Part shown: positions 5,158 to 34,268 of the stretch, piece by piece
How positions within the stretch are numbered: the first letter of the stretch is position 1
How the letters are laid out: each line of letters opens with the position of its first letter
Assembly (NCBI GenBank): GCA_964389665.1
Contig: CAYMFC010000002.1
Location: 1 to 48,435 of the forward strand
Origin: an uncultured Desulfobacteraceae bacterium
Lineage (GTDB): Bacteria; Desulfobacterota; DSM-4660; Desulfatiglandales; B25-G16
DNA: 48,435 nt
Direction: 5' to 3'
Program-made: the position numbers and the translations under genes
The notes under the pieces: model-generated
Databases searched by the model: none
The model's input: only the letters and a program-made list of their open reading frames with translations
Told to the model about the DNA's origin: nothing

Positions 5158-7662
5158 TTAGGCAAGCATGCCTTTCGTTTTCAACACCCGTATCTCCTCT
5201 GCCTGGCTGTCGGTGAGCGAGAATATCTCACCGATAATCTCTGATGGCTTCATCTCCGGGCCGCCGTCATGTCTTACGACCATCTCGATCTCGTTACCGG
5301 ATAAAAGCTGCAATCCTTTCACCTGGGATCTGATATCGATGGTACGTTCCATGTTTCCCCTCTTCTGGACCACAGGACATGCGGATAGTCTTAAGAACCG
5401 AATCATATCCTCCTCTTTGACAGATCCACGAACGCTTACCTGGAACGTGCTTTCCTTCACCTGGGGAGGGTGCTCTTTGGGAAACACTTCCTCAATGGTT
5501 AGGACCCTGATACCGGCTGGAAGCTCTCGGTTGACCAGATCGATTGTTCGACGGATATTCCTGCTATCGTACAGGGAGAGATCCACCACCTCATCCAGGC
5601 TCTCCACCCCCACCGGTAATGCCGTTGCAAAGGAAACCCTCGGCATGGGATGGTAGCCCCTTGAGTAAACCATGTTTATCCCGGCCCTCCTGAATGCCCG
5701 TATGAATAATCTCATAAGCTCTAAATGGCTCAGGTATCGTCCTCTCTTTAGTTTCGTGAAATGGATCCGAAACCTTCGTATGCGGCCCTCCGTCTTTGAC
5801 TTAGAGGGAAAAAACTTCCCTAATGATGTATCCCCGTTGAACAGTACCGGTGAAACCGACAGCTCTTCGCACACGCCGCAGTTGGAGCACTGTTCCCTGC
5901 AGTCCTGCGTTGCCTCTCCCCTCTGTGCCTTCAGCCATTCATCCAGCAAGAATTCCTTTGAGATACCGGAGCTTATATGCTCCCAAGGCAGGACTTCTCC
6001 CTCATCCCTCTGCCTCAGGAGGTAGAAATCGGGATCAAGGCCGTGTCTTTCAAAGGCATTCCTCCATGTGTCCAGGTTGAGATGCTCGCTCCAACTATCG
6101 AAACGCGCGCCCTGGTTCCATGCATCGATGAGCACATCAGTCAATCTCCTATCCCCCCTCGAGAAAATGCCCTCCAGCCAGCTCGCCTCCGGCTTATTCC
6201 ACTTAACCTTTACCTTTTTCCCGTGAAGCCTGTCTCTGATGGAGTTAATCCTTCGCTTGCCCTCTTCGAGCTCGAGTTGGGGCAGCCATTGAAAGGGGGT
6301 GTGGGACTTGGGGACAAAGGCGGCAACACTCACGTTCAGGACATTGTGCCGTCGTCCTCTGGGCCCAAGCCGCGCTATCTTTTTGCTCAGCTCGACAAGA
6401 GCCTCAATATCGTCCTCCTGCTCCATTGGAAGGCCGATCATGAAGTATAGTTTGATCAGGCTCCATCCTGCCGCATAAATCTCACGAGCGGTACGCAAGA
6501 TCTGCTCCTCGGTCAACCCCTTGTTGATCACGTCTCTCATCCTCTGGCTTCCGGCCTCAGGCGCAATGGTAAAACTGGTTTTTCTGACCCTTTTGATCTC
6601 CTCCATCAACGGCGACATGATCCCGTCTGCCCTCAGAGATGAGAAGCTCACGGCCACACGATCATTCGCGACCCTTTCCATCAACTCGCTTACCAAGGGC
6701 ACTACACAGCTATAGTCCCCCGAGCTCAAGGAGAGCAGCGACAGATCCTCGAATCCCGTTTGTTGAAGGCCATGCTCCGCGATGCGTACGATCTCTTGAG
6801 GGTTCCTTTCCCTCACCGGCCTGTAGATCATTCCTGCCTGGCAAAACCGACACCCCCGGCTGCAACCCCTCGCAATCTCTATAGTGAACCGGTCGTGAAC
6901 CGGTTCGGCAATGGGAACTATCTGCCTTGAGGGAAAAGGATAGGAGTTGAGGTCAGGAATTACTGCCTTTTCAACCCTCCTGTAGCCCGGCCGTAAGCCC
7001 TCTATCCGCTCCACGATGCCCTGGGTGTTATAACGTACGGAAAAGAACGATGGTATATAGACCCCTCGTATCGTTGCGAGCTCCTCCAGCAACTCTAGCT
7101 TGCCCTTCCCGCCAGCCTGTTTCCACTCCCTCACAGCCTTACAAATATGGACCGCTACCTCCTCCCCATCACCCACCACGATCGCGTCAAAGAGGGTGGC
7201 CACCGGCTCCGGATTGAAGCAAGCAGGGCCACCTGCTATTATCAAAGGCTCATTCGATCCCCTCTGCTCGGACAAAAAGGGAATACCCGCGAGATCGAGC
7301 ATCGTCAGGATGTTGGTATAGCAGAGCTCATGTTGCAGGCTGAAGCCTATGAGGTCAAATTGTGATAGCGGCCTTCCCGACTCGAGGGAGCTGAGGGGGA
7401 GGGCTCTCCGTCTCAGCTCTTGCTCTAGATCGGCCCACGGGGCGAACACCCGCTCTGCCGCAAGCCAGTTCAGGGAGTTGAGGATATGGTAGAGTATCTT
7501 GAGCCCCACGTGGGACATTCCAATCTCATACACATCTGGAAAGGCCAACGCAATAGAGACCTCCACATCTTCTGGGGCTTTGATGATTGCGTGGGTCTCA
7601 CCCCCGAGGTACCTGCTCGGATGTTTTATCCTTGAAAACCACGTGTGCTGTGATATATGCAT
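5158..7662 (-). CDS. Fused radical SAM protein (TIGR03960-like B12-binding-type radical SAM + DUF2344/TIGR03936-like C-terminal domain)
   Basis: The 834-aa ORF has a CxxxCxxC cluster, CSRGCRFCQAG. The N-terminus (SRYLGGE...ALAFPDVYEIGMSHVGLKILY) resembles the TIGR03960 family. The C-terminal roughly 220 aa (RFRIHFTKLKRGRYLSHLELMRLF...) resembles the partner protein that is usually encoded separately. The gene lies 9 bp upstream of rng. Confidence 0.82.
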   Translation of the reverse strand: MHISQHTWFSRIKHPSRYLGGETHAIIKAPEDVEVSIALAFPDVYEIGMSHVGLKILYHILNSLNWLAAERVFAPWADLEQELRRRALPLSSLESGRPLSQFDLIGFSLQHELCYTNILTMLDLAGIPFLSEQRGSNEPLIIAGGPACFNPEPVATLFDAIVVGDGEEVAVHICKAVREWKQAGGKGKLELLEELATIRGVYIPSFFSVRYNTQGIVERIEGLRPGYRRVEKAVIPDLNSYPFPSRQIVPIAEPVHDRFTIEIARGCSRGCRFCQAGMIYRPVRERNPQEIVRIAEHGLQQTGFEDLSLLSLSSGDYSCVVPLVSELMERVANDRVAVSFSSLRADGIMSPLMEEIKRVRKTSFTIAPEAGSQRMRDVINKGLTEEQILRTAREIYAAGWSLIKLYFMIGLPMEQEDDIEALVELSKKIARLGPRGRRHNVLNVSVAAFVPKSHTPFQWLPQLELEEGKRRINSIRDRLHGKKVKVKWNKPEASWLEGIFSRGDRRLTDVLIDAWNQGARFDSWSEHLNLDTWRNAFERHGLDPDFYLLRQRDEGEVLPWEHISSGISKEFLLDEWLKAQRGEATQDCREQCSNCGVCEELSVSPVLFNGDTSLGKFFPSKSKTEGRIRRFRIHFTKLKRGRYLSHLELMRLFIRAFRRAGINMVYSRGYHPMPRVSFATALPVGVESLDEVVDLSLYDSRNIRRTIDLVNRELPAGIRVLTIEEVFPKEHPPQVKESTFQVSVRGSVKEEDMIRFLRLSACPVVQKRGNMERTIDIRSQVKGLQLLSGNEIEMVVRHDGGPEMKPSEIIGEIFSLTDSQAEEIRVLKTKGMLA

Positions 7663-20484: not shown

Positions 20485-22215
20485 TTAAAGCATTTTCCAT
20501 ACAAAGGCAAGTGCCCCGGCAAAAAGGAGATTGCCCTCCACAATAGCCTGTAAGCAAGGTCCGTCCTTTATCCACTCCCTCCAGTATGCCCCGATATACA
20601 CCACTGCGATCAGGAAGCAGATGATGAGGGGGTAGCCCAGAGATGAAACGAAACCAGTGTCTGCCGTAAGCAGCAGCAGGCATGCACCGATTGCGTTCAC
20701 CAGAAACAAGAGCCTCAAGGCCCTTCCTTCCCCCATCGCAATCGGGAGTGTCTCCTTACCAACGATCAAATCCCCTTGTATGTTGAGGATATCGAATATT
20801 CCTGCCCGCACGTAACACATAGAGGATACAAACAGGAAGGATACCAAAATCCCGGGCCATAAAGGCCTCGGCCACCCAATAAAGGGGAACACCGAGCTTA
20901 TGGTTCCCCACGCCAATGCCTCCACCAACGTCTTTGACCCCGGTAGATCTTTTATCTTCGTGTATCGCCCGAGATATCCTACTCTCAGCGGTATGATCGG
21001 CATGCTATATGCCAATCCCAAAAAGGTGAGCGCGAGAAAGAGCAAAACCTGGACGAAACCGAGCGAGAGGGAGAGGAAAAGTCCTGTGCCTATCGTTGCC
21101 AGCGATGTAGTCACGAGAAAACCTCGATGCTTGGTATAGAAAAGGGCTATGCCGGGATCGTTGTATGTGCCGGCTTCCTTATCCAGAAATCGGTTCAGCA
21201 CGTGCATGCTGTACACATAGAGCAGGGCAATGAAGGGGTAAATAAGCGGTGCCCTGCCCATGGAGAGCACAAGACCTGCATAGGTCAGGGAGAATGCCCC
21301 GATGGACTCAGGAATTGTTATCACCGTGAGGAACCGAAGGGCTCTACCCGATAAATTCCCAAAGGAATATCGCCCTTTCTGACCCATGGCTTTTACTCTC
21401 TCCATCACCTTTTTTATCATCCAGTTGGGGGTTGAGGCACCAGCAGTGACACCAACTGTTTCGGCCGAGCCAAACCATGAGCTCTCCAGCTCCTTCTCGG
21501 TCTCCACATGAAAGGTGGGTATTCCCATAGATTTCGAAATTTCATACAACCGCCGCGTGTTGCCGCTGTTGCTGCCGCCGACCACCACCATGCTATCCAC
21601 CTCCGATGCCAAGGCCCTCACTTCCCTCTGCCGTTTATACGTTTCATGGCAAATCGTATCAAAGATTACCGCCTCCGGGTAACGATTCTTGATGGCATTT
21701 ACGGTGGTCCAATAATCGTCCACATTTTGTGTGGTTTGCGACACCACAACCAGCGGGTCATCCTCGGGCAACCTCTCCACATCCCTCGGGGAACGTATCA
21801 CGATACTGTCACCTGCTCCGTAACCCATCAATCCAATGACCTCAGGATGTCTGGCATCTCCAAATATGACAGGCGTATACCCCCTGTTGTGGTATTTCTT
21901 TATAATCGCTTGCACCTTTCCAACACGAGGACACGTGGCATCTATTATCCTGAAATTGGAGTTTCTTATCCTTTCCCTCTCTGCCGGCGAAATACCATGC
22001 GCTCTAATGATGATCCTTCCTTCCTCGCGCTTCTCTATATTCTCCTTGACGTCCACGCCCTTTGATCGGAGCAAATCCAAGACCTGCTGATTATGGATCA
22101 ATGGTCCGTAAGTAAAAAGCTTTCCATCGCCTTTGTTGGCCTCAGATAGGGCAATCTCCATAGCCCTTCTAACACCCATACAGAATCCCGCACTCTTGGC
22201 CAATCTAACCTTCAC
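20485..22215 (-). CDS. ispH: Fusion: 4-hydroxy-3-methylbut-2-enyl diphosphate reductase (IspH) + UbiA-superfamily membrane prenyltransferase domain
   Basis: The N-terminal roughly 285 aa of this 576-aa ORF carry the IspH motifs and the three cluster Cys (GFCMGV, DATCPRV, DTICHET, GASTPNW). The C-terminal roughly 290 aa are polytopic and carry UbiA-type Asp-rich motifs (NRFLDKEAGTYND and FDILNIQGDLIVGKETLPI). Confidence 0.85.
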   Translation of the reverse strand: MKVRLAKSAGFCMGVRRAMEIALSEANKGDGKLFTYGPLIHNQQVLDLLRSKGVDVKENIEKREEGRIIIRAHGISPAERERIRNSNFRIIDATCPRVGKVQAIIKKYHNRGYTPVIFGDARHPEVIGLMGYGAGDSIVIRSPRDVERLPEDDPLVVVSQTTQNVDDYWTTVNAIKNRYPEAVIFDTICHETYKRQREVRALASEVDSMVVVGGSNSGNTRRLYEISKSMGIPTFHVETEKELESSWFGSAETVGVTAGASTPNWMIKKVMERVKAMGQKGRYSFGNLSGRALRFLTVITIPESIGAFSLTYAGLVLSMGRAPLIYPFIALLYVYSMHVLNRFLDKEAGTYNDPGIALFYTKHRGFLVTTSLATIGTGLFLSLSLGFVQVLLFLALTFLGLAYSMPIIPLRVGYLGRYTKIKDLPGSKTLVEALAWGTISSVFPFIGWPRPLWPGILVSFLFVSSMCYVRAGIFDILNIQGDLIVGKETLPIAMGEGRALRLLFLVNAIGACLLLLTADTGFVSSLGYPLIICFLIAVVYIGAYWREWIKDGPCLQAIVEGNLLFAGALAFVWKML

Positions 22216-24334: not shown

Positions 24335-26644
24335 GTGGGAAAAACATACGGCAATATCCTGGATGAGATCGGAAACACGCCTCTCGTGCCTATCGGTCGT
24401 TTAACCAAGAACCTCGGCGTGGCGGTGTATGCCAAGCTCGAGTCCTTCAATCCAGGGGGCTCTATCAAGGACAGGGTGGCGCTGTCGATGATTGAGGATG
24501 CCGAGCAGAACGGCCGGTTAACCAGGGAAAAGGTGATTATTGAGGCCACGAGCGGCAATACCGGTATCGGCCTCGCCCTCGTTGCCGCGATCAAGGGTTA
24601 CCGGCTCGTGCTCACTATGTCGGACTCGGTGAGTGAGGAACGGAAAAAGATCCTCGCGGCTTTGGGAGCGGAACTCAGGTTCACCCCGTCTCATCTTGGC
24701 ACCGATGGAGCAATCGAAGATGCCTACAACCTGGTTCGGCAAGAGCCGGAAAAATACTGGCTCGCGGACCAATTCAACAATGAGAGCAACTGGATGGCCC
24801 ATTATCGTGGAACTGCCGTCGAAATCTGGGAACAGACAGGCGGAAAAGTCTCTACGGTTGTCGCTGCCATGGGCACCACGGGCACTATAGTAGGCCTCTC
24901 ACGGAGGCTGAAGGAATACAATCCCCACATTGAGATAGTGGGGGTTGAGCCCTATCTGGGTCATAAGATTCAGGGAATGAAGAATCTCAAGGAATCATAT
25001 CGCCCTGAGATATTCGATAAAGCCCTCCTGGACCGTATCGTTCATATCGATGACGAGGTTGCCTTCCAGGTAGCAAGGAGGCTCGCCAAAGAGGAAGGCA
25101 TCTTCGTCGGCATGAGTTCCGGTGCAGCTATGGCCGCAGCCCTTAATGCGGCACATGAGATGAAGCAAGGCGTCGTGGTGGTGATATGTCCCGACGGCGG
25201 CGAACGATACCTGAGCACCAACCTGTTTACCGACCGAAAAAGGACTGGTATCAGGTTCTATAACACGCTCAGTAGGCAAATTAATGAATTCACCCCCATA
25301 AGGGAAAATGAGGTCACGATCTATTCCTGTGGACCTACCGTGTCGAAATTAATAGATATCGCGGAGTGCAGGAGGTACGTGGTCGCAGATATTCTGAGGC
25401 GCTATCTCGAATATAAGGGGTTTGACGTCACCCATATCATCAATATCACCGATCTGGACGATCGAACCATTCAGGGAGCAGAGGCCGCAGGGAAAGATCT
25501 AAAGACCTTTACCGACACCTATTACCAGGAGTTCCTCGAGGATATGGACGCCCTCAATGTCAAGAGGGCCGCCAAGTATCCCAGGGCAAGCGCGCATGTG
25601 GGAGAGATGATAGACACCGCTGAAAAGCTTATAGAGCGGGGCTTCGCCTATGAACGATTGCGCTCAGTCTATTTCGACATATCCCGTTTCCAGGACTATG
25701 GCAAGCTTTCCAGGGTGAACCTGGACAAGATCAAGGTAGGGAAAACGGTGGACCTGGATCAGTACGAAAAGGACAATCCGAGGGATTTCACGCTTCTCAA
25801 GAGGTCTACCCTCCATGAACTCAAGAAAGGTCTGTTCTTCTCCACCAAATGGGGTAACCTGCGTCCCAGCTGGCATATAGAATGCGCTACAATAGCCATG
25901 AAATACCTCGGCGAAACCTATGATATTCATACCGGGGGTGTCGATTTGATCTTTCCGCATCACGAAAACGACATAGCCATTTCAGAGGCCATTACCGGCA
26001 AGCCATTGGCAAACTACTGGCTTCACAATGAGCTGATCCGTGAGGAACAAGCGCCTGACCCACAAGAGACAAAGGCTGCCACACTCAGGGAAGTACTCCA
26101 GAAGGGATACCGCGGCAGGGATATCAGGTACTGGCTCATGCAGACCCACTACAAAAGGGCAATCTACTTTTCATGGGCAAAGCTGGCCATGGCGAGAAAT
26201 ACGGTTGCCCGTCTGGATAGATTCATCCATGCGCTCCGCACCTGCAAGAAGGGATCGGCTTCAGGCGAGATCAATCAGCTCATCTACGATCTTACCCGAA
26301 GCTTTGGCGAGGCAATGGATGAGGATCTAAATATTTCCCAGGCCCTGGCAGCGTTCTTCGGATTTACCCGTAAGGTCAACCGCCTCATTGACTCACATGG
26401 ATTAGCCCCGTCTGATCGAGAAAAGATCGAAGAGCTACTCGCTAGGATCAACTCTGTGCTCATGGTGATGGACCTCTCCGAGGTGCAATCAAACCAACAG
26501 ATAGAGGAATTGTTGAGGGAAAGAAGGGATGCGAGGGAACTCAGGGATTGGGCACGGGCAGACGCGATACGAGAGAAGCTGAAGGAATTGGGAATTGCGG
26601 TGCTCGACACACCGGATGGAACCACCTGGCATAGAATTCTCTGA
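24335..26644 (+). CDS. Fusion: PLP-dependent cysteine synthase (CysK/CysM-like) + CysRS-like domain lacking HIGH and KMSKS
   Basis: The 769-aa ORF has a GTG start after GAAGGGAG. Residues 1-300 carry the PLP Lys motif GGSIKDR plus TSGNTGIGLA, GTTGT and GMSSGAA. Residues 306-769 are collinear with cysteinyl-tRNA synthetase (YSCGPTV, NITDLDD, WHIECA, GGVDLIFPHHEND, C-terminal DGTTW). The HIGH position reads DIAE, and the KMSKS position reads an unrelated EEQAPDPQETK. Confidence 0.85.
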   Translation: MGKTYGNILDEIGNTPLVPIGRLTKNLGVAVYAKLESFNPGGSIKDRVALSMIEDAEQNGRLTREKVIIEATSGNTGIGLALVAAIKGYRLVLTMSDSVSEERKKILAALGAELRFTPSHLGTDGAIEDAYNLVRQEPEKYWLADQFNNESNWMAHYRGTAVEIWEQTGGKVSTVVAAMGTTGTIVGLSRRLKEYNPHIEIVGVEPYLGHKIQGMKNLKESYRPEIFDKALLDRIVHIDDEVAFQVARRLAKEEGIFVGMSSGAAMAAALNAAHEMKQGVVVVICPDGGERYLSTNLFTDRKRTGIRFYNTLSRQINEFTPIRENEVTIYSCGPTVSKLIDIAECRRYVVADILRRYLEYKGFDVTHIINITDLDDRTIQGAEAAGKDLKTFTDTYYQEFLEDMDALNVKRAAKYPRASAHVGEMIDTAEKLIERGFAYERLRSVYFDISRFQDYGKLSRVNLDKIKVGKTVDLDQYEKDNPRDFTLLKRSTLHELKKGLFFSTKWGNLRPSWHIECATIAMKYLGETYDIHTGGVDLIFPHHENDIAISEAITGKPLANYWLHNELIREEQAPDPQETKAATLREVLQKGYRGRDIRYWLMQTHYKRAIYFSWAKLAMARNTVARLDRFIHALRTCKKGSASGEINQLIYDLTRSFGEAMDEDLNISQALAAFFGFTRKVNRLIDSHGLAPSDREKIEELLARINSVLMVMDLSEVQSNQQIEELLRERRDARELRDWARADAIREKLKELGIAVLDTPDGTTWHRIL

Positions 26645-26708: not shown

Positions 26709-26802
26709 TGGCGGAGAGAGAGGGATTCGAACCCTCGGTAGAGCTTTTGACCCTACACTCACTTAGCAGGCGAGCGCCTTCAGCCATCTCGGCCATCTCT
26801 CC
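26709..26802 (-). tRNA. tRNA-Ser (anticodon GCU)
   Basis: I folded the reverse complement by hand. The acceptor is GGAGAGA/TCTCTCC, the anticodon stem is CTCGC/GTGAG with loop CTGCTAA, there is a long variable arm, and the T-arm is GAGGG-TTCGAAT-CCCTC. CCA is encoded. Confidence 0.9.
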
Positions 26803-26862: not shown

Positions 26863-26950
26863 TGGCGGAGGGAGTAGGATTCGAACCCACGGAGCATTGC
26901 TGCTCAACGGTTTTCAAGACCGCCTCCTTCAACCACTCGGACATCCCTCC
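26863..26950 (-). tRNA. tRNA-Ser (anticodon UGA)
   Basis: In the reverse complement the acceptor is GGAGGGA/TCCCTCC, the anticodon stem is GCGGT/ACCGT with loop CTTGAAA, there is a long variable arm, and the T-loop is TTCGAAT. CCA is encoded. Confidence 0.92.
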
Positions 26951-27105
26951 ATTGTTGTCGTATATACCATACGAGGGGAAATCCGTCAAAATTTTTTCAA
27001 AAAATCCAAGGTATGAACTATGTCGTCTCTCCTTTTCCGGCACCGAAGTTTTGATGGTTTGCCCTTTTTAATTACCCGTGGTTGCGATCGTACGATTCTT
27101 TATGA

Positions 27106-27134
27106 TTGACAGTAAGACTAATTTATCTTACTAA
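27106..27134 (+). promoter_or_regulatory. Putative promoter/operator of the mazEF-like operon
   Basis: TTGACA (27106-11) is followed by a 17-nt spacer and TACTAA (27129-34). An inverted repeat, AGTAAGA (27111-17) / TCTTACT (27127-33), spans the spacer, as expected for antitoxin autoregulation. Confidence 0.4.
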
Positions 27135-27171
27135 TAGGTAGCATGAAATATGAGCAAAAGGGGTGGGAAAA

Positions 27172-27414
27172 ATGAAATCAACAAAGGGAAAGGTCAGTAT
27201 TTCGCTGGATGCCTCCATTTTGCAGGACATTAAGATGTACTCTAAGTCTAAAAAGGTTTCCAGGAGCCAGGTAATTGAGAGTATCCTTAAAACGTGGCAG
27301 GCCGAGATCAAGAAACGGGAAATGATCGAGGGCTATAAGGCCATGACCCAAGAAAATACCCGAATTGCAGAAGATTTTTCCTCCTTAGCCCAAGAGGTGT
27401 GGCCTGATGAATAG
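27172..27414 (+). CDS. Ribbon-helix-helix (CopG/MazE-type) antitoxin
   Basis: The RHH pattern is KVSISLDASILQDIKMYSKSKKVSRSQVIESILKTW. I prefer the ATG at 27172 after AAAGGGG, whereas the track ORF starts at the GTG at 27163. It overlaps the toxin start by 8 bp. Confidence 0.75.
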   Translation: MKSTKGKVSISLDASILQDIKMYSKSKKVSRSQVIESILKTWQAEIKKREMIEGYKAMTQENTRIAEDFSSLAQEVWPDE

Positions 27415-27754
27415 ATTCCCTAAGCGCGGTGAGATTTGGCTAATCCAATTCGATCCGAAAGTCGGCTCCGAACAAGGAGGAACACGTCATGGTGTTATCT
27501 TACAAAACGATATTGGCAACGAGCACAGCCCTACGACGATTGTTGCCGCATTGACCACCACGATTCGTCAAATGCCCATCCACGTGTATCTGGACAAATC
27601 AGATGGAGTAGATCGCCCATCCATGCTCCTTTTGGAGCAGATTCACACCATTGACAAAAAAAGACTGGTAAAAAAAGTTGGCAGGATAAGGGATGAAAAA
27701 TTCAAAGAAATTTATGAAGCGGTCCTCTATAGCCTGGGATTTAAGGAGCTATAG
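27407..27754 (+). CDS. mazF: MazF/PemK-family endoribonuclease toxin
   Basis: The 115-aa ORF has the motifs PKRGEIWLIQFDPKVGSEQGGTRHGVILQND, PTTIVAALTT and LLLEQIHTIDKKRL, which are typical of PemK/MazF. Confidence 0.9.
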   Translation: MNRFPKRGEIWLIQFDPKVGSEQGGTRHGVILQNDIGNEHSPTTIVAALTTTIRQMPIHVYLDKSDGVDRPSMLLLEQIHTIDKKRLVKKVGRIRDEKFKEIYEAVLYSLGFKEL

Positions 27755-27833
27755 GATAATCTCACTACAATTAGGTTAGAATTTGAAACCTTGTAAAACA
27801 CTCCAAGTCCTTAGGATGAATTAAGACACAGTG

Positions 27834-27860
27834 TTGACTTTTACAAAATTGTAATACAAT
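27834..27860 (+). promoter_or_regulatory. Putative promoter/operator of the vapB-like gene
   Basis: TTGACT (27834-39) is followed by a 15-nt spacer and TACAAT (27855-60). The inverted repeat TTACAA-aa-TTGTAA (27841-54) lies within the spacer. Confidence 0.35.
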
Positions 27861-27891
27861 AGGTGAAACAAAGTGTTACGAGGTGATCGCA

Positions 27892-28185
27892 ATGAGCGTT
27901 TTGACCCTCAGAATAGAGAAAGAATTTCTCAAAAAATTGGATAGTATCTCTAAGGCAAGGGGCACGAATAGGAGCGCTCTCGTTAAAGAAATCCTGCAAA
28001 AGGCCTTGGAACAAGAAGGGCTGCCTGTAGACCAGGCAACTGTTGCCATGAAAAAAGGGGGAAAGCCCGATGTAGAAATAGATCGGGAAACGATAGACAG
28101 GGAACTGGAAAGGAGTAGCCCGTTTTTTTCCTCAATTGAAGAAGCAATGGGCCATAGCAGGAAGAGGGTATGGAAAAAAGGGTAA
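27892..28185 (+). CDS. Ribbon-helix-helix (CopG/VapB-type) antitoxin
   Basis: The RHH pattern is LTLRIEKEFLKKLDSISKARGTNRSALVKEILQKAL. I prefer the ATG at 27892 after GAGGTGA. It overlaps the PIN ORF start by 16 bp. Confidence 0.7.
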   Translation: MSVLTLRIEKEFLKKLDSISKARGTNRSALVKEILQKALEQEGLPVDQATVAMKKGGKPDVEIDRETIDRELERSSPFFSSIEEAMGHSRKRVWKKG

Positions 28186-28627
28186 AGGTTTTTATCGATA
28201 CGGATGTATACGTCATTGAAAGGAGATACACAAGGGATACGAAGTATCAAGAAACCGTGCGATTCATAGAAAGAGCGGTAAATAATGAGATCATCGCCTA
28301 TACCTCTATCTATAATCTATTAGAATTTTGTGGGATCCTATCATTTAATCTCAGCGCTGAAAGCACCGTAATGCTCTACCTTGGTTTTGCAAGAAAGTTT
28401 AATACCAACCATATTGTTCCCGGAGGAGGATGCCAGATTAGTATGTTTTGACCCCAAATCCATACTGGACCATATAAAGGGGAAGATGAGCTTCGGTGAT
28501 GCCGTTGATAACTTTCATAGTCGATAAAAATAAAAAAATCCTCGATGCCTTTGTGACATGGAACGTGGCGCATTTTAAGGACAAAGTAACGGTAGCTGTT
28601 CTGAATCCAAATGAAGTGATGCCTTAA
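28170..28627 (+). pseudogene. PIN-domain (VapC-like) toxin pseudogene with at least two frameshifts
   Basis: Frame 1 (28170-28451) gives the N-terminal PIN elements VFIDTDV and YTSIYNLLEF. The remainder is only readable after shifting frames. Frame 2 reads ...FDPKSILDHIKGKMSFGDA to about 28500. A third frame reads (P)LITFIVDKNKKILDAFVTWNVAHFKD... to the TAA at 28625-27. Confidence 0.65.
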
Positions 28628-28669
28628 GAATAGAAACACAGGGGAAACATTGAACAACGAGGTCAAAAA

Positions 28670-28975
28670 ATGAACTCATCATCCCAAACGTGGCGGCACC
28701 CCGGAGGTAAACTCAGAGAACTCGGCCCTGAGAACTTATCGGATGCTGAGCTTCTCGCCATACTGATCTCATCAGGCATCAAGGGAAAGCCGGCAGAAAC
28801 GATTGCCGGTGAGATCCTCGCCACATTCGGCTCATTCAAGGGAATGGCAAACCAGCCTTTACACAAGTTTCTTGAAATAAAAGGGCTGGGAGATGTGAAA
28901 ATTATCAGGATTGCTGCTGCCTTTGAGATCGCACGAAGGATAGTAAACCAGGTATTAAAAGACCATGAAAAGTAA
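28670..28975 (+). CDS. RadC-family N-terminal helix-hairpin-helix module only (no JAB/MPN domain)
   Basis: In this 101-aa ORF, LSDAELLAILISSGIKGKPAETIAGEILATFGSFKGMANQPLHKFLEIKGLGDVKIIRIAAAFEIARRI matches the N-terminal half of RadC/UPF0758 proteins. The ORF ends before the metalloprotease-like half and overlaps the next gene by 11 bp. Confidence 0.75.
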   Translation: MNSSSQTWRHPGGKLRELGPENLSDAELLAILISSGIKGKPAETIAGEILATFGSFKGMANQPLHKFLEIKGLGDVKIIRIAAAFEIARRIVNQVLKDHEK

Positions 28976-31900
28976 AAAACTGGGCAAAATCTCAAGCAAG
29001 ACGAAAACAGAGATTTTTAGGGCATCTGTTTTTGATGTCAGTGTCCACAAGACAGAGCGTACTTGCGTTGCCAAAGTAGCTGAATGGATTAATGGTATTG
29101 CCAAGAAAAAAGGGCTGGATATAGGTCCAGCCGAAGTCGAAACCCGCAGTGCAGATGACAAGTATCCAGATATCGTCATCTTTGAAAATCCCCGAAGTCA
29201 AAACCTTTTATGTGTAGCAGAATTTAAACCACCCTATTTTGATCCATTTGATGAAAAGGAGCTTAAAGAACCTTCAAGGCTGAAAGCAACTCATAGAAGG
29301 GCCAAATATTTTGCCACGTGTAATTTTAAAAAACTTATCTGGTTCAACACGGAAAAGGCAAATGCCTTTAAACCAGAAGAACAACAAATCGTTGAAAAAT
29401 ATCATCTCTCAGAACTTGAGAATCTGGATGATATTGACCAAACAAGGCATAGCGAGCCTATAAAGAAAGGGCTTGAAGATTTTCTTACCCAGCTTTACTC
29501 CGTCTCTTCAGGCAAAGAGCCCGAGCCAAAACAGGCGATCGACGAGTTTTTGATTTTCAGGCTCCAGGAGAAGATAAAAGTTCTCTCTACCTACTATAAA
29601 AGAATTATTGATGATCAATGCCACAAAGACCCTCCTTTCGCTAAGAGAATAAAGAACTGGTTTGTAGATCAGGGTTGGAGTTTTGTCTGGCAGCCCCAGG
29701 ACTTTGAGAAAGCGGCAAGACAGACTGCCTATCTTCTTATAAACAAAATCCTTTTCTACAACCTTCTTCAAGCAAAGAGACCGGAGGCCCTTGACCCTCT
29801 CGAAATACCTGAAGGACTTACAAAAGGTGCAGTGCTCCAGGCAACCCTTCAGGGTTATTTCAACCAGGTTTTGAAGATAGACTACGAAACTATCTATACC
29901 ACGGATTTCATAGATACCATAGCCTTCCCTGAGGCGAGAGAGGTGGTAAAAGAAATAAAAGAGCTTATTAGTGTCCTGAAAAGATATGACTTTTCTAAAC
30001 TTGGATATGATGTTATCGGCAGGATTTTTGAAGGCCTTATTCCCTCTAATGAACGGCACAATTTAGGCCAATATTTCACCAGCCCTGATGTGGTTGATTT
30101 AATCCTTGGGTTCTGTTTACATCATGAAGACAACAAGATCCTTGATCCAGCCTCTGGGGCAGGAACCTTTCTTGTAAGGGCCTACCAGCACAAAAAATTG
30201 ATGAATCAATATAAAAGTCACGAGGATATCCTCGAAACCCTTTGGGGGAATGATATTGCCAAATTCCCGGCTCACCTTGCCACAATAAACCTTGCTCTTA
30301 ACGACCTCGGTGCAGATAAGAATTATCCGAATATTCTTCAAGAGGATTTCTTTGCCCTTCTTGTCGGAGATAACGGTTTTGATCCTGAAAAATGGCGAAG
30401 GGTCAGGGCAAAAACACTTGGGCTTCAAGAGCGAGAAGTCATTTATCCACGCTGGTTTGATGCTGTGGTGGGCAATCCACCCTATACAAGGCAAGAGGAG
30501 ATAAGCAAAATCTCCCCTGAGGATGCCGAATACAAAAGAAAGCTTATCAATAAAGCTCTCTTGGATTTAAGAGGCAAAAAGACTGCTGAGATAGGAAAAC
30601 GAGCAGGCATCCATGCTTATTTTTTTGTCCATGGCACAAAGTTTCTAAAGGATAAAGGGTTTTTTGGATTCATCGTCTCAAATTCATGGCTCGATGTCGA
30701 CTATGGCAAAGGACTTCAGGAGTTCTTCTTAAAGAATTACAAAGTCGTTGCCATAATCGAATCCAAAGTAGAACGCTGGTTTGAAGAAGCAGACATTAAT
30801 ACCTGCATCATTATCCTCCAAAAGTGCAAAGACAGGAAGGAGCGAGATCAAAATCTCCTCAGGTTTGTGTATCTAAAGAAGTCGCTCAGATACTTTATTC
30901 CGCCAGCGCAGGATATGTGGGAAAAGCAGATTGAGAGACTAAATGCCATAGACAAACTCAAAAAAACTATCCTCGCCCATAATGAACTTTACGAGAATGA
31001 GGATTTGAGAATTTTTCCCAAAAAGCAGAGCGAGCTATGGGATGAGGGTTTTGACCTTGAGAAGGAAAAATATGTGGGAGCAAAGTGGGGCAAATACCTG
31101 AGGGCACCGGAGATCTTCTTTAAGATTCTGGAAAAAGGCAAAACTAAGCTCATCCCATTGAAAAAGATAGCGGAGATTCACAGAGGGTTTACAACTGGTG
31201 CAGACCCTTGGTTTTATGTTTCTGACATAACGAGCTTAATAGGGCCTAAAGAAATTGAGATGATGGCCAATAGATCAAACTACAAAGGAAAACATGAAAA
31301 TCTAAGACTCATCCTAAGTGGTGATGGAACAAAATGGCTTATCGAGAAGGAATATTTGTATCCTGTTATTCGTAATCCTGAGGATTATAAAAAGATTCTT
31401 ATAGACTTCGCATCGGTTGAAGATTTCGTTATTGTTGTAAGCGAGCCAAAAGACAAAATTAACAGCAAACTTGTCTATAATTATATTCTTCATGGTGAAA
31501 AGAAAGTATATAAGATGGGCAAAGATAGAAGTATGATACCTGCTAAAACCGACACATGCTCCTCAAGGGAGTATTGGTATCAATTACCAGCTATTAACCC
31601 ATCGCGTATTTTATGGCAAAAGGCATTTGACATTTACCACAGGCATTATATTGTCAGTAACAACGTCCTTGCAAACCAACGTTTCTACTCCATTTATCCG
31701 AAAAAAGTCCAAGATCTTGAAATAATAGCTGCCTTCCTAAACTCGCTGCTGGTTCCTTTATATCTTGAATTTCAGAGGTCGGGAATGGGGCTCGGAGCAA
31801 TTGAAGCAACAGTGGACGAAGTTAAAAGGATTTTAGTAGTTAATGCAAAAGTAGTAGAAGCTCCCGCAAGAAGTAAGCTATCGAAAGCGCTGAACAAGTT

Positions 31901-32552
31901 AGGAGAGAGGGAGATTGATTCAATTTTTGAAGAACTCGGTGCATACTCCCCCAAAGAGGTCTCCCTTGAAAAGGCCAAGGCTGATCGCAGGGAGCTTGAT
32001 AAAATCATTATGGGCGAAATCTTGGGGCTTACTGATGAGGAGCAACTTCAAGTCTATAGAGCCATAGTGGATTTGGTAAAATCAAGGATTGAGAAGGCAA
32101 AGAGCTTTGGCAAAAAGAAAAGAACAAAAGATGGAATAGATGTAGATGCCCTCGTTAAAACTGTCATGGACAAAATTGGCGATGAGACGCTTGGAAAATT
32201 CTATAAAGAAAAGATCATCACCCTGAAGCCCCTGCTAACAAAACCACTACCCCAGGAATCAGGCAAAGTCAGAATTCAACAACATTTATTCGGCTGGAGA
32301 CTTTCTTCTGGCAAGAAATATCTTGAATGTGATTCAGAAGAAGAAGCCCGCTATCTCAAAATCTTTCTCGAAGCAGGAATGGATACAGTGAACATCCCAA
32401 AAGATAATGAATACTTAAAAACCATCCTTCCAGAGATAGAAATCTTGCATGTAAAAATATCTGACATCATCAATTCCTATCTTGAATCCATTGCAGACAC
32501 AAAAACAAAAGCAACGATAAGCCATCTCCTTTGGACAGAGGTTATGAAATGA
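28965..32552 (+). CDS. Single-chain restriction-modification enzyme, type IIG-like (PD-ExK nuclease + N6-adenine methyltransferase + target-recognition region + C-terminal extension)
   Basis: The 1195-aa ORF has a candidate PD-(D/E)xK, YPDIVIF...LLCVAEFKPP, at about aa 67-90. It has SAM motif I (KILDPASGAGTFLV), catalytic motif IV (VVGNPPYTRQEE), an Eco57I-type segment (FFGFIVSNSWLDVDYG) and a TaqI-C-type TRD signature (IAEIHRGFTTGADPWFYV). Confidence 0.82.
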   Translation: MKSKKLGKISSKTKTEIFRASVFDVSVHKTERTCVAKVAEWINGIAKKKGLDIGPAEVETRSADDKYPDIVIFENPRSQNLLCVAEFKPPYFDPFDEKELKEPSRLKATHRRAKYFATCNFKKLIWFNTEKANAFKPEEQQIVEKYHLSELENLDDIDQTRHSEPIKKGLEDFLTQLYSVSSGKEPEPKQAIDEFLIFRLQEKIKVLSTYYKRIIDDQCHKDPPFAKRIKNWFVDQGWSFVWQPQDFEKAARQTAYLLINKILFYNLLQAKRPEALDPLEIPEGLTKGAVLQATLQGYFNQVLKIDYETIYTTDFIDTIAFPEAREVVKEIKELISVLKRYDFSKLGYDVIGRIFEGLIPSNERHNLGQYFTSPDVVDLILGFCLHHEDNKILDPASGAGTFLVRAYQHKKLMNQYKSHEDILETLWGNDIAKFPAHLATINLALNDLGADKNYPNILQEDFFALLVGDNGFDPEKWRRVRAKTLGLQEREVIYPRWFDAVVGNPPYTRQEEISKISPEDAEYKRKLINKALLDLRGKKTAEIGKRAGIHAYFFVHGTKFLKDKGFFGFIVSNSWLDVDYGKGLQEFFLKNYKVVAIIESKVERWFEEADINTCIIILQKCKDRKERDQNLLRFVYLKKSLRYFIPPAQDMWEKQIERLNAIDKLKKTILAHNELYENEDLRIFPKKQSELWDEGFDLEKEKYVGAKWGKYLRAPEIFFKILEKGKTKLIPLKKIAEIHRGFTTGADPWFYVSDITSLIGPKEIEMMANRSNYKGKHENLRLILSGDGTKWLIEKEYLYPVIRNPEDYKKILIDFASVEDFVIVVSEPKDKINSKLVYNYILHGEKKVYKMGKDRSMIPAKTDTCSSREYWYQLPAINPSRILWQKAFDIYHRHYIVSNNVLANQRFYSIYPKKVQDLEIIAAFLNSLLVPLYLEFQRSGMGLGAIEATVDEVKRILVVNAKVVEAPARSKLSKALNKLGEREIDSIFEELGAYSPKEVSLEKAKADRRELDKIIMGEILGLTDEEQLQVYRAIVDLVKSRIEKAKSFGKKKRTKDGIDVDALVKTVMDKIGDETLGKFYKEKIITLKPLLTKPLPQESGKVRIQQHLFGWRLSSGKKYLECDSEEEARYLKIFLEAGMDTVNIPKDNEYLKTILPEIEILHVKISDIINSYLESIADTKTKATISHLLWTEVMK

Positions 32553-32703
32553 GTGGAAGCAAATTATAAAAGGAAATCTAAATCAATGTGGGAAGGATTG
32601 GATATGGATTATCGAAAGATCCATTGTAATTGTATATGGTAATCATTGGCAAAAATGAAGAGGATTACTACAGTTTTGCAAAAAGGGGACTGATACAATA
32701 GGG

Positions 32704-34164
32704 ATGGAAGAGAAGGATCTAAAGAAGTTGTTGGCCTCAGGCGAAACCGATACCTTGGAGTTTAAAGAAAATTTTGACAAAAATACCATAGAGGCTGCCG
32801 GAGCGTTTGCCAATACAAAAGGCGGAACTATTATCATCGGCATCTCTGATAGAAATAGGGTTACAGGTGTGCACGTTGGAAGAGAAACGTTAAAAACCTG
32901 GGCAAACCAGATTTCTCAAAGTACCGAGCCTCGTATTATTCCCGGAATCGAGCTTGGCGAAATTAATAAAAAACCTGTCGCCCTTATTACCATTAAGGAG
33001 TTCCCTATCAAACCCGTATCGGTAAAAGGCAGATACTTCCGAAGGGTCGGAAATAGCAACCGCGTAATGAGTATGCAAGAAATTGCACAAATGCATTTTC
33101 ATTCCGTCGGGATGAGTTGGGATAAACTCCCGGCAAGGGATGCTTCTATGAAAGACATAGACCTTGAAAAGGTCAAAAAATACATTGATAAAGCGAATGA
33201 AACCGGCAGAAGAAAAATTCAGGCGGATGAGAATCCCATACAGGTTCTTGAAAAACTGGAGATAATAAAAGAAGAGACACCTACCTGGGCGGCAATTCTT
33301 CTTTTTCATCAGCACCCTCAGCGCCTTCTTCCCCAGGGAGTAATCCACTGCGGGAGATTTAAAGAAGAGATCATAGTCATTGACGATAGGATGATTGAAA
33401 GTACAATCACCGAACAGGTCGAAGAGGCTATGGATTTCATACGGAAGAATATCAACGTACAATTTGTTATGACCGGTGAGCCGGCACGGGAGCAAATCTG
33501 GGATTATCCTATTGATGCTTTGAGAGAAGCGATAATTAATGCGGTATGCCATAGAGACTACACGATTTCTTCAAATACTGAAATCAGGATATATGACGAC
33601 AGATTGATTGTGTGGAGTCCTGGTGGATTGCCGTTTGGCATTACTATTGAAGACCTGTACAGACCTCATCCCTCCGTGCTTCGGAACAAGGGAATAGCAG
33701 GGATCTTTTACGACATGGGATGGATTGAGCAGTGGGGAAGCGGGATAGATAAGATGCGAAATGCCTGTGTAAAGGCCGGACTTCCTGAACCTCAATTTGA
33801 AGAGTATCATGGGTTCCGGGTAATCTTCAGGAAAGATATTTATACAGAAGAATATCTCCGCAAAGCGGGCTTAAATGAGCGGCAGATTAAGGCGGTGATG
33901 CATGTGAAGGAGAAAGGGAGGATTACGAATAAGGAATATCAAGAGGCTAATGGGGTCTCCAGGCAGACTGCTGCACGTGAACTATCATATCTTGCGCAGT
34001 CTGATATATTCTTGAGGCATGGAAAAACAGGGAGAGATACCTATTATACTTTATCCGGAAAAACAACTGAAAGTGAAAACGCCTCACAAACGCCTAATAA
34101 ACGCCTCACAAACGCCACAAAGGGTCCGAAAGCGGGGTCAAAAACGCCGGAAATAAGCCACTGA
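32704..34164 (+). CDS. AlbA_2 (Schlafen-type) DNA/RNA-binding domain + HATPase_c_4-like domain + C-terminal wHTH protein (COG2865-type)
   Basis: The 486-aa ORF has an N-terminus, ESGETDTLEFKENFDKNTIEAAGAFANTKGGTIIIGISD, typical of AlbA_2. The central REAIINAVCHRDY...IRIYDDRLIVWSPGGLP is typical of the RecG-like ATPase-fold domain. The C-terminus (ITNKEYQEANGVSRQTAARELSYL) is an HTH, followed by a low-complexity basic tail. Confidence 0.82.
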   Translation: MEEKDLKKLLASGETDTLEFKENFDKNTIEAAGAFANTKGGTIIIGISDRNRVTGVHVGRETLKTWANQISQSTEPRIIPGIELGEINKKPVALITIKEFPIKPVSVKGRYFRRVGNSNRVMSMQEIAQMHFHSVGMSWDKLPARDASMKDIDLEKVKKYIDKANETGRRKIQADENPIQVLEKLEIIKEETPTWAAILLFHQHPQRLLPQGVIHCGRFKEEIIVIDDRMIESTITEQVEEAMDFIRKNINVQFVMTGEPAREQIWDYPIDALREAIINAVCHRDYTISSNTEIRIYDDRLIVWSPGGLPFGITIEDLYRPHPSVLRNKGIAGIFYDMGWIEQWGSGIDKMRNACVKAGLPEPQFEEYHGFRVIFRKDIYTEEYLRKAGLNERQIKAVMHVKEKGRITNKEYQEANGVSRQTAARELSYLAQSDIFLRHGKTGRDTYYTLSGKTTESENASQTPNKRLTNATKGPKAGSKTPEISH

Positions 34165-34268
34165 AAAAGCTCCATGAGGTTTGAGATACGTAAAGGCTTT
34201 ATATATTTTAAAAAAAGCATCAAGTGCATCGTAATTGCATCAATGGAAACTTATCAAAGATAATCGTT

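Follow-up and report, generated by a model that had tools for sequence, protein, structure and literature searches.

The window analysed here, 48,435 nucleotides of contig CAYMFC010000002.1 from an uncultured Desulfobacteraceae bacterium, holds a gene in which a cysteine synthase of the CysM type, dependent on pyridoxal phosphate (PLP), is fused to a body collinear with cysteinyl-tRNA synthetase (CysRS). The sequences strongly support that the PLP half carries every hallmark of an active CysM-type cysteine synthase, and that the losses in the CysRS-like half of this protein and its closest relatives focus on the adenylation site; very probably this half cannot adenylate cysteine. It is under strong purifying selection. 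As a joint explanation we tentatively suggest an intact CysM attached to a non-adenylating CysRS-derived body that would act as a ligand sensor or tether, a reading to which we give slightly less than an even chance. Parts of this arrangement had been proposed in a preliminary description of the stretch made from its letters alone.

Architecture of the fusion protein

The fusion of a sulfhydrylase of about 300 aa to about 460 aa collinear with CysRS, as outlined in the preliminary description, is borne out by hidden Markov models and by alignments, with PALP, tRNA-synt_1e and DALR_2 all at the expected places. Pfam assigns PALP to aa 9-286 (E 1e-75; 255 bits vs a cutoff of 35), tRNA-synt_1e to aa 319-621 (E 2e-86), DALR_2 to aa 657-712 and CysS_C to aa 722-765. 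The CysRS-like half thus has the full collinear canonical architecture of Rossmann body, connective polypeptide (CP) insertion, DALR_2 and anticodon domain, at about 35-45% identity to canonical bacterial CysRS. An AlphaFold2 model of the fusion protein, with a mean predicted local distance difference test (pLDDT) score of 75, matches CysRS (8qhp, 1u0b) and CysM (TM-score 0.82 to 2bhs) in the PDB; the CP insertion (residues 439-498) and the loop at the former KMSKS position (pLDDT <50 at 565-579) are modelled with low confidence. An assembly artefact joining two genes, a possibility raised in the preliminary description, is ruled out by the recurrence of the fusion in all 80 loci inspected and on closed chromosomes.

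Loss of the adenylation site

In class I synthetases, the HIGH and KMSKS motifs bind ATP and stabilise the transition state of adenylation. Aligned with 8qhp and with E. coli CysRS (1li5), whose residue numbers we use, the window protein reads DIAE at E. coli residues 37-40, the place of HIGH, exactly where the preliminary description had put it. That description also held that the KMSKS segment had been replaced without any change in length. The replacement stands, E. coli residues 266-270 falling inside NELIREEQAPDPQETKAATL, but this loop is one residue shorter than that of E. coli and extends from 26027 to 26086 and not from about 26036 to 26080. Neither a HIGH-like nor a KMSKS-like motif was found in any of the six frames of the fusion gene, and since no frame restores the motifs, their loss reflects divergence and not a frameshift, as had been argued before from the alternative frames at KMSKS. 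A change that had been missed concerns the KIIK motif (K73, K76), which reads RTIQ in the window protein (R377, Q380).

We compared 186 distinct members of the clade of the window protein (the window clade) with 47 sister fusions, 51 stand-alone relatives and 218 canonical CysRS, using as reference the 85 columns with at least 90% conservation in the canonical group. The window clade retains 60 of these columns, partly retains 10 and has lost 15, namely H37, K73, K266, M267, K269, S270, N273, E238, Q241, Y33, T115, R168, G204, S210 and G392. K266, M267 and K269 stand at 0%, H37 is kept by only 23% of the members, G39 by 55% and K73 by 19%, and GGxD, the ribose/ATP motif, is half retained. The HIGH position varies and is often acidic (DIAE, DLAD, DLAN, GLGD, DLGE, HIGQ and others), and the former KMSKS loop has any length from 8 to 27 residues (8 in 30 sequences), compared with 18 residues in all sister fusions, all stand-alone relatives and 216 of the 218 canonical CysRS. 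No other part of the protein varies as much as this loop, which has an entropy of 1.96 and a ratio of nonsynonymous to synonymous substitution rates (dN/dS, here and below from about 20 independent close pairs) of 0.17. As to the conservation of the losses, on which the preliminary description had called for a survey, that of KMSKS is clade-wide, whereas the HIGH position and the fourth Zn ligand are variable and not fixed. With the motif site evolving this freely, aminoacylation is very unlikely. Despite the missing motifs, the window protein scores 403.4 against a cutoff of 340 on the cysS equivalog model TIGR00435 of NCBIfam, and because this model passes the motif-less form, databases (NCBI, JGI) name members of the family 'cysteine--tRNA ligase'.

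The cysteine synthase half

The four PLP motifs recognised in the preliminary description all sit at their places in the N-terminal half: GGSIKDR (aa 41-47, nt 24455-24475, with K45 as the PLP lysine), TSGNTG (aa 72-77, nt 24548-24565), GTTGT (aa 180-184, nt 24872-24886) and GMSSGA (aa 259-264, nt 25109-25126). Among the 120 closest clusters, GGS[IV]KDR is present in 118, TSGNTG in 119, and GT[TSA]GT and GMSSGA in all 120. The PLP domain, of fold type II according to PALP and the PDB structure match, scores 373.2 on the cysKM subfamily model TIGR01136 (cutoff 344.15) and 375.6 on the cysM equivalog TIGR01138, slightly under the cutoff of 394.2 (both NCBIfam). It aligns with E. coli CysM (2bhs) over 291 residues with zero gaps, an invariant lysine, K216, occupying the position of E. 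coli R210, and its dN/dS is 0.080.

Retained features of the CysRS-like half

Three of the four Zn ligands of CysRS, C28, C209 and H234, are kept as C332, C517 and H542 (98-100% of the window clade), and the fourth, E238, is D546 in the window protein, so that the ligands named in the preliminary description, including the change from Glu to Asp, agree with the alignment. Across the 186 clade members this fourth position is occupied by D in 67, A in 41, S in 24, N in 15, E in 14, T in 13 and others in the rest. The cysteine-pocket residues C28, G29, T68, W205, H206, C209 and H234 are kept in 98-100% of the clade. For R423, R427, D436, R439 and D451 (R730, R734, D743, R746 and D758 in the window protein), the invariants of the anticodon domain, the figure is 99-100%. 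In this domain, which is elsewhere variable (dN/dS 0.19), the clade has 11 fixed positions, and 6 of them coincide with the 9 canonical conserved ones (p about 0.001).

Conservation across the protein peaks in the CP domain (entropy 0.49, 61% of columns conserved to at least 95%, dN/dS 0.036). This domain holds an invariant K-[VI]-G-K-T that replaces the canonical acceptor-stem motif, whose last residue, R168, has become Thr. In CysRS, CP1 takes part in recognising the 1:72 base pair of tRNA-Cys (PMC5389517). The dN/dS of the CysRS-like half taken together is 0.096, and a value of about 0.1 across it rules out a decaying pseudogene. Because the pocket, the CP1 module and the anticodon contacts are fixed, we infer that the domain most likely still binds cysteine and/or tRNA-Cys.

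Compared with the sister fusions, the window clade has no newly fixed residues except one conservative I-to-L change and no new conserved Cys; no new active site was found. The last residue is not conserved, which led us to reject a C-terminal Ile tail with an auto-inhibitory action like that in the CysE-CysK complex.

Evolutionary setting

Representatives at 50% identity were searched exhaustively, together with a further homolog search, and a neighbour-joining tree of the CysRS domain was calculated with the HIGH and KMSKS columns left out. In this tree the window clade is monophyletic (bootstrap 98), and the larger fusion/KMSRS family of window clade, sister fusions, stand-alone relatives and intermediates separates from canonical CysRS as a monophyletic group (bootstrap 91). 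The tree does not resolve the order of branching inside this family. The sister fusions, of 768-796 aa, are widespread in Thermodesulfobacteriota, with Ca. Desulfofervidaceae and Thermosulfuriphilus among their sources, and keep 71 of the 85 canonical invariants: HIGH reads H-[LI]-G-x, the loop is a strictly conserved KMSRS, and E238 is present. The stand-alone relatives of about 468 aa (P0123, P0286-P0345; from metagenome-assembled genomes (MAGs) of Polyangia and Deltaproteobacteria) have HIGL, a strict KMSRS and PHNENENA and branch inside the family to which the fusions belong; a homolog search with P0123 gave Polyangia and Deltaproteobacteria MAG proteins as well as sister fusions. Derived substitutions common to all three groups affect Y33, R168 (to Thr), S210 (to Ala), Q241 and K269, which is not Lys; the window clade and the sister fusions also share one at T115. 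Since no position is newly fixed in the window clade, its protein looks like that of the sister fusions minus the constraint on adenylation. The fusion probably preceded the motif loss, with the window clade as a derived branch of the HxGx/KMSRS fusion family, whose HxGx/KMSRS-type ancestor was probably a bifunctional CysM-CysRS.

Rarer degenerate forms also occur, such as P0388 (DLSV/KMTRG) and P0393 (NLGH/KMGRE). In the 759-aa fusions P0127 and P0285 (ENA) and in P0126 (503 aa), HIGH and KMSKS are lost and the second Zn cysteine as well (WHIKS or WHIQS), and by their residues these proteins extend what reads as a graded decay series of the CysRS active site. Elsewhere, the fusion of a cysteine-pathway enzyme to CysRS occurred repeatedly: P0130 (768 aa, Nanoarchaeota MAG, MFW6014224.1) is a CysM-CysRS fusion with canonical HIGN and KMSKS, which groups with DPANN CysRS and hence arose independently, and P0199 (711 aa, on an ENA contig of 167 kb) joins a Hexapep domain (CysE-like, perhaps serine acetyltransferase-like) to a CysRS with canonical HIGH and KMSKS.

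Possible roles of the fusion protein

In the mechanism that we propose, the CysM-type half would make cysteine and the C-terminal ~460 residues would be a pseudo-synthetase that binds L-cysteine and/or tRNA-Cys, uncharged or charged. Ligand binding would tie how active the cysteine synthase is, or where it sits, to the supply of cysteine and the charging of tRNA-Cys, on the model of HisZ and the HisRS-like domain of GCN2, and a separate enzyme would make Cys-tRNA-Cys in the hosts. In one form of this mechanism the module may read the charging state of tRNA-Cys and turn cysteine synthesis on or off. With no new residues and no partner gene, a sensor or tether is the simplest role, and the lack of newly fixed residues itself argues for a retained non-catalytic function over new chemistry.

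Several points weigh against this proposal. The sensor/tether mechanism for the CysRS-like half is drawn by analogy, and we hold it to be possible, with its chances again somewhat short of even. The geometry of the cysteine site may be altered, the fourth Zn ligand being variable, and cysteine binding is not universal among the degenerate relatives, given P0127 and P0126. The geometry between the domains in the AlphaFold2 model is unreliable (predicted template modelling score, pTM, 0.58). No conserved partner gene or regulatory RNA pointing to a pathway was found in the window and its relatives. Furthermore, as Cys-tRNA-Cys is essential, another route to it would have to exist if the fusion protein is inactive; P0400, a CysRS of the DPANN/candidate phyla radiation type, is no guide to the canonical cysS of the hosts.

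Five other explanations were weighed. As a hand-off or channelling scaffold, the CysRS body would capture new cysteine on its Zn site and recruit tRNA-Cys or the true CysRS, which would keep free cysteine low in a sulfide-rich cell without regulating CysM; the cysteine pocket and tRNA determinants are indeed kept, the ancestors were probably bifunctional enzymes for which channelling is an obvious benefit, and CysM and CysE-like Hexapep domains have been fused independently to CysRS with canonical motifs. We regard this as unlikely, however: nothing points to contact with another CysRS, a Zn site that binds thiolate tightly is ill suited to passing cysteine on, the fourth Zn ligand varies, and a conserved partner gene is missing. 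The anticodon invariants, the CP1 domain and the amino-acid pocket, retained despite the loss of adenylation, would also suit tRNA-dependent chemistry, in which the CysRS body docks a tRNA-Cys carrying O-phosphoserine (Sep), Ser or Cys, and the PLP domain acts on the esterified residue, giving Cys-tRNA-Cys by a SepCysS-like route, or a persulfide or other derivative; the short linker and the invariant K216, which takes the place of R210 in E. coli CysM, are consistent with it. Yet the TSGNTG loop, which in O-acetylserine sulfhydrylases clamps the free alpha-carboxylate, is invariant, and to our knowledge no fold-type-II PLP enzyme acts on aminoacyl-tRNA, SepCysS, SelA and SepSecS being of fold type I. 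The SepCysS-type pattern is absent in that the PLP domain is of fold type II and no SepRS or other partner was found in the inspected loci, the only regions covered, and SepRS is known in the literature mainly from outside the host group; the comparison with the KMSRS fusions shows no newly fixed residues either. Such chemistry therefore appears quite unlikely.

There is a similarly small chance that the CysRS-like half is a structural relic that binds no ligand and is kept for the folding, solubility or oligomerisation of CysM. The absence of new functional residues, the degeneration gradient with P0127 and P0126 lacking the second Zn cysteine, and a context showing no functional partner would all fit this, but it leaves unexplained why canonical ligand-contact residues are retained at 98-100% within otherwise variable domains and why the dN/dS of the CP domain is as low as 0.036. 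A persulfide or sulfur-transfer enzyme, in which the PLP domain would act together with the cysteine bound to Zn to give cysteine persulfide or a different sulfane-sulfur product, is suggested by the hosts being sulfide-rich anaerobes, by a true PLP enzyme fused to a cysteine-binding site and by the PLP-dependent activity reported for E. coli and mammalian CARS (PMC5660078). It is very doubtful, since the required K73 and K76 are now R377 and Q380, the KMSK loop is gone, and neither a sequence mark of a persulfide site nor a new conserved Cys is seen. Finally, the score of 403 against 340 on the cysS equivalog, the database name cysteine--tRNA ligase and the lack of a second CysRS gene, both in the window and across ~1.07 Mb of related loci (10 kb flanks), could be taken to indicate a still-active CysRS that uses non-canonical ATP-binding residues, maybe the only one of the cell. 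We consider this highly improbable, for the HIGH position is variable and often acidic, GGxD is partial, and the loop is without a conserved residue and 8-27 residues long, 30 sequences having 8, whereas a catalytic site would be conserved and not be the most variable region of the protein. Among the three options named in the preliminary description, namely channelling, tRNA-dependent chemistry and a cysteine sensor, the evidence leans to the sensor or tether and away from new chemistry.

Feature positions, distribution and genome context

The coordinates of the fusion gene and its parts are given in Table 1.

Table 1 Features of the fusion gene, with positions in the window and residue numbers of the fusion protein; equivalents in parentheses refer to E. 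coli CysRS.
Feature	Position	Strand	Basis or remark
CysM / pseudo-CysRS fusion, whole gene, 769 aa	24335..26644	+	GTG start, TGA stop
CysM-type PLP-dependent cysteine synthase domain, aa 1-298	24335..25228	+	PALP, TIGR01136, alignment to 2bhs
Short inter-domain linker, ~aa 299-306	25229..25252	+	pLDDT dip at residues 294-297, domain limits agree; boundary approximate
CysRS-like Rossmann catalytic body including CP insertion, aa 307-621	25253..26197	+	tRNA-synt_1e; aligns with 1li5 and 8qhp
C332 (Zn ligand C28), followed by G333 (G29)	25328..25330	+	98-100% conserved in 186 clade members
Former HIGH motif, now DIAE, aa 341-344	25355..25366	+	residue alignment to 1li5/8qhp
CP (connective polypeptide / CP1) domain, aa 437-512	25643..25870	+	entropy, dN/dS
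WHIEC: W513 (W205), H514, C517 (Zn ligand C209)	25871..25885	+	100% conserved in clade
PHHEND: H542 (Zn ligand H234), D546 (E238 position)	25955..25972	+	alignment; E238 position variable in clade
Degenerate former KMSKS loop NELIREEQAPDPQETKAATL, aa 565-584	26027..26086	+	alignment, loop-length and entropy comparison
Helical DALR_2 domain, aa 657-712	26303..26470	+	Pfam; canonical invariants F342, D349, N367 kept
C-terminal anticodon-binding domain, aa 716-769	26480..26641	+	CysS_C E 3e-9; R730, R734, D743, R746, D758 kept

The family comprises more than 120 clusters at 90% identity, of which the best 120 are all full-length fusions of 62-100% identity, mostly from MAGs of Deltaproteobacteria, Thermodesulfobacteriota, Desulfatiglandales and Desulfobacterales, some of them on Mb-scale contigs. 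At least 450 species-level genomes carry a relative when one genome per species is searched with the family-specific segment as query. In the best 80 loci the fusion is full-length except for contig-end truncations and one frameshifted copy (L078), and its carriers include the cultured strain NaphS2, the closed chromosomes CP070704.1, CP070657.1 and OY759599.1, and also CP070660.1. In L078 (2984-5379, uncultured Desulfatiglans sp. MAG) the fusion appears as two overlapping open reading frames (ORFs) of 275 aa and 539 aa. A frameshift or sequencing error would account for this, or else CysM and pseudo-CysRS are truly separate genes there. No second CysRS-like gene was found in the window or in 85 related loci (~1.07 Mb, only 10 kb on each side), and a cysS missing from 10 kb flanks says little on whole genomes; the papers on NaphS2 and N47 gave nothing on a canonical cysS of the hosts.

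The window is an ordinary chromosomal region with genes for PurE, Sua5, RapZ, RNase E/G, GroEL, ParAB, PlsY and IspH-UbiA, and further for Dus, Macro, Fmt, Def, GidB and RtcA. Its synteny is common to relatives at ~72% identity and different in more distant ones. The most frequent neighbours of the fusion gene are GroEL/ES and an epimerase, joined in close relatives by Dus/Macro/IspH genes; all of these were ruled out as functional partners, being ordinary synteny. At the fusion gene, no riboswitch, T-box, promoter or terminator stood out above background, no tRNA-Cys gene lies near it, and selB-like or selC-like neighbours were found neither in the window nor in the loci of the relatives.

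Right downstream of the fusion gene, two tRNA-Ser genes with GCU and UGA anticodons are located at 26709-26802 (-) and 26863-26950 (-). The pair, called convergent, is also present in 17 of the 47 scanned relatives, some with different upstream synteny (loci L001, L002, L003, L005, L011, L013, L015, L018, L019, L050, L067, L069, L075, L077 and L083 among them). These are ordinary tRNA-Ser with a G73 discriminator and were ruled out as a functional clue; the adjacency is probably old synteny and not a functional link. A low-GC island at ~27100-34200 directly follows the pair (GC 0.41-0.47 vs ~0.50-0.54 in the flanks). It encodes a DUF6364 antitoxin-like gene with a MazF/PemK toxin (27163-27754), a ribbon-helix-helix (RHH) protein and a short ORF (27883-28451), a RadC-like UPF0758_N fragment (28670-28975), a 1195-aa Eco57I/MmeI-type N6-methylase fusion (28965-32552) and a Schlafen AlbA_2 / HATPase_c_4 protein (32704-34164), and looks like a defence or mobile element integrated beside tRNA genes. 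In L002, glutaredoxin and FeThRed_B, then Fmt/Def, follow the fusion gene in place of the island.

Two further genes of the window were noted. One, at 20485-22215 (-), encodes a 576-aa fusion of IspH/LytB (aa 3-274) and a UbiA-type prenyltransferase membrane domain (aa 324-546), which puts the final reaction of isoprenoid-precursor synthesis together with a prenyltransferase; a 576-aa LYTB protein is found at the equivalent position in L001 (with a weak UbiA match too) and in L002. The other, at 5158-7662 (-), adjoins RNase E/G and encodes a large radical-SAM protein of an uncharacterised type (834 aa, Radical_SAM_N2, Radical_SAM and DUF2344).

Implications

Pseudoenzymes that descend from synthetases are rare and informative; HisZ, SLIMP and the HisRS-like domain of GCN2 are examples. 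The series from canonical motifs over HxGx/KMSRS and motif-less forms to those losing a Zn cysteine could show a synthetase turning into a regulatory or binding module. The hosts (Desulfatiglandales, Desulfobacterales and relatives) are abundant sulfate reducers and hydrocarbon degraders that live in sulfide and must control reactive cysteine, and the cultured host strain NaphS2 makes experiments possible. If the charging switch were true, this enzyme would be the first in bacteria to be governed by a fused pseudo-synthetase, in a GCN2-like manner; if the docking of aminoacyl-tRNA were true, it would constitute a third, previously unknown tRNA-dependent route of making or modifying cysteine on tRNA, convergent with SepCysS. 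Automated annotation probably over-calls CysRS in hundreds of Desulfobacterota genomes, and metabolic reconstructions may count a non-functional CysRS as the synthetase of the cell.

Comparison with known systems

No description of a CysM-CysRS fusion or of a motif-less CysRS was found in the searchable literature, consistent with the statement in the preliminary description that no characterised member was known. A 2022 review lists as CysRS paralogs MshC and CysRS* only. Relative to the searchable literature, neither a pseudo-synthetase derived from CysRS nor one fused to a cysteine synthase appears to have been described before.

With canonical CysRS (1li5/1u0b; 8qhp) the window protein has the pocket residues and anticodon invariants in common, but HIGH/KMSKS, K73, N273, E238 and Q241, present there, are lost here, GGxD is partial, and canonical CysRS has no CysM domain. 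The sister fusions (P0121, P0349 from Ca. Desulfofervidaceae and P0352 from Thermosulfuriphilus) are uncharacterised; at ~50% identity they have the same architecture and length and the same highly conserved CP domain, but keep H37, G39, the fixed-length KMSRS loop and E238, at all of which the window clade has lost constraint. MshC, also derived from CysRS and repurposed outside translation, is an ATP-dependent, tRNA-independent ligase without the C-terminal anticodon domain (PMC2922099, PMC9437257), and identity with it is ruled out by a score of 167.5 against a cutoff of 485.1 on TIGR03447, by the missing motifs and by the presence of the anticodon domain. CysRS* of Desulfobacterales lacks the anticodon-binding domain, has a changed CP1 motif, is located downstream of selB*/selC* and is thought to aminoacylate a SelC-like tRNA-Cys (Mukai et al., NAR 2017; PMC5389517). 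It is another non-canonical CysRS paralog, of the same bacterial order, and the CP1 acceptor-stem motif is altered in both; unlike it, the window protein retains the anticodon domain but not the catalytic motifs, is joined to CysM and is without selB*/selC* neighbours.

The persulfide activity of CARS/CPERS from E. coli and mammals is PLP-dependent and needs K73, K76, K266 and K269 (PMC5660078). A CysRS scaffold is linked with PLP chemistry on cysteine in both cases, but all four lysines are gone from the window protein, where PLP belongs to a separate fold-type-II domain, and the analogy to CARS drawn in the preliminary description is weakened accordingly.

The pattern that the window protein does fit is that of a pseudo-synthetase, without adenylation motifs and physically attached to a biosynthetic enzyme for the same amino acid, here CysM. 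The HisRS-like domain of GCN2 reads uncharged tRNA, and HisZ, which has no anticodon-binding domain, unlike the window protein, is a class II-derived, separate and non-homologous subunit, whereas the window protein is class I-derived and a covalent fusion. As a HisRS paralog without adenylation activity, HisZ mediates the inhibition of HisG by histidine (PMC9437257), and the likeness lies in a non-adenylating, synthetase-derived protein attached to the biosynthetic enzyme of the same amino acid.

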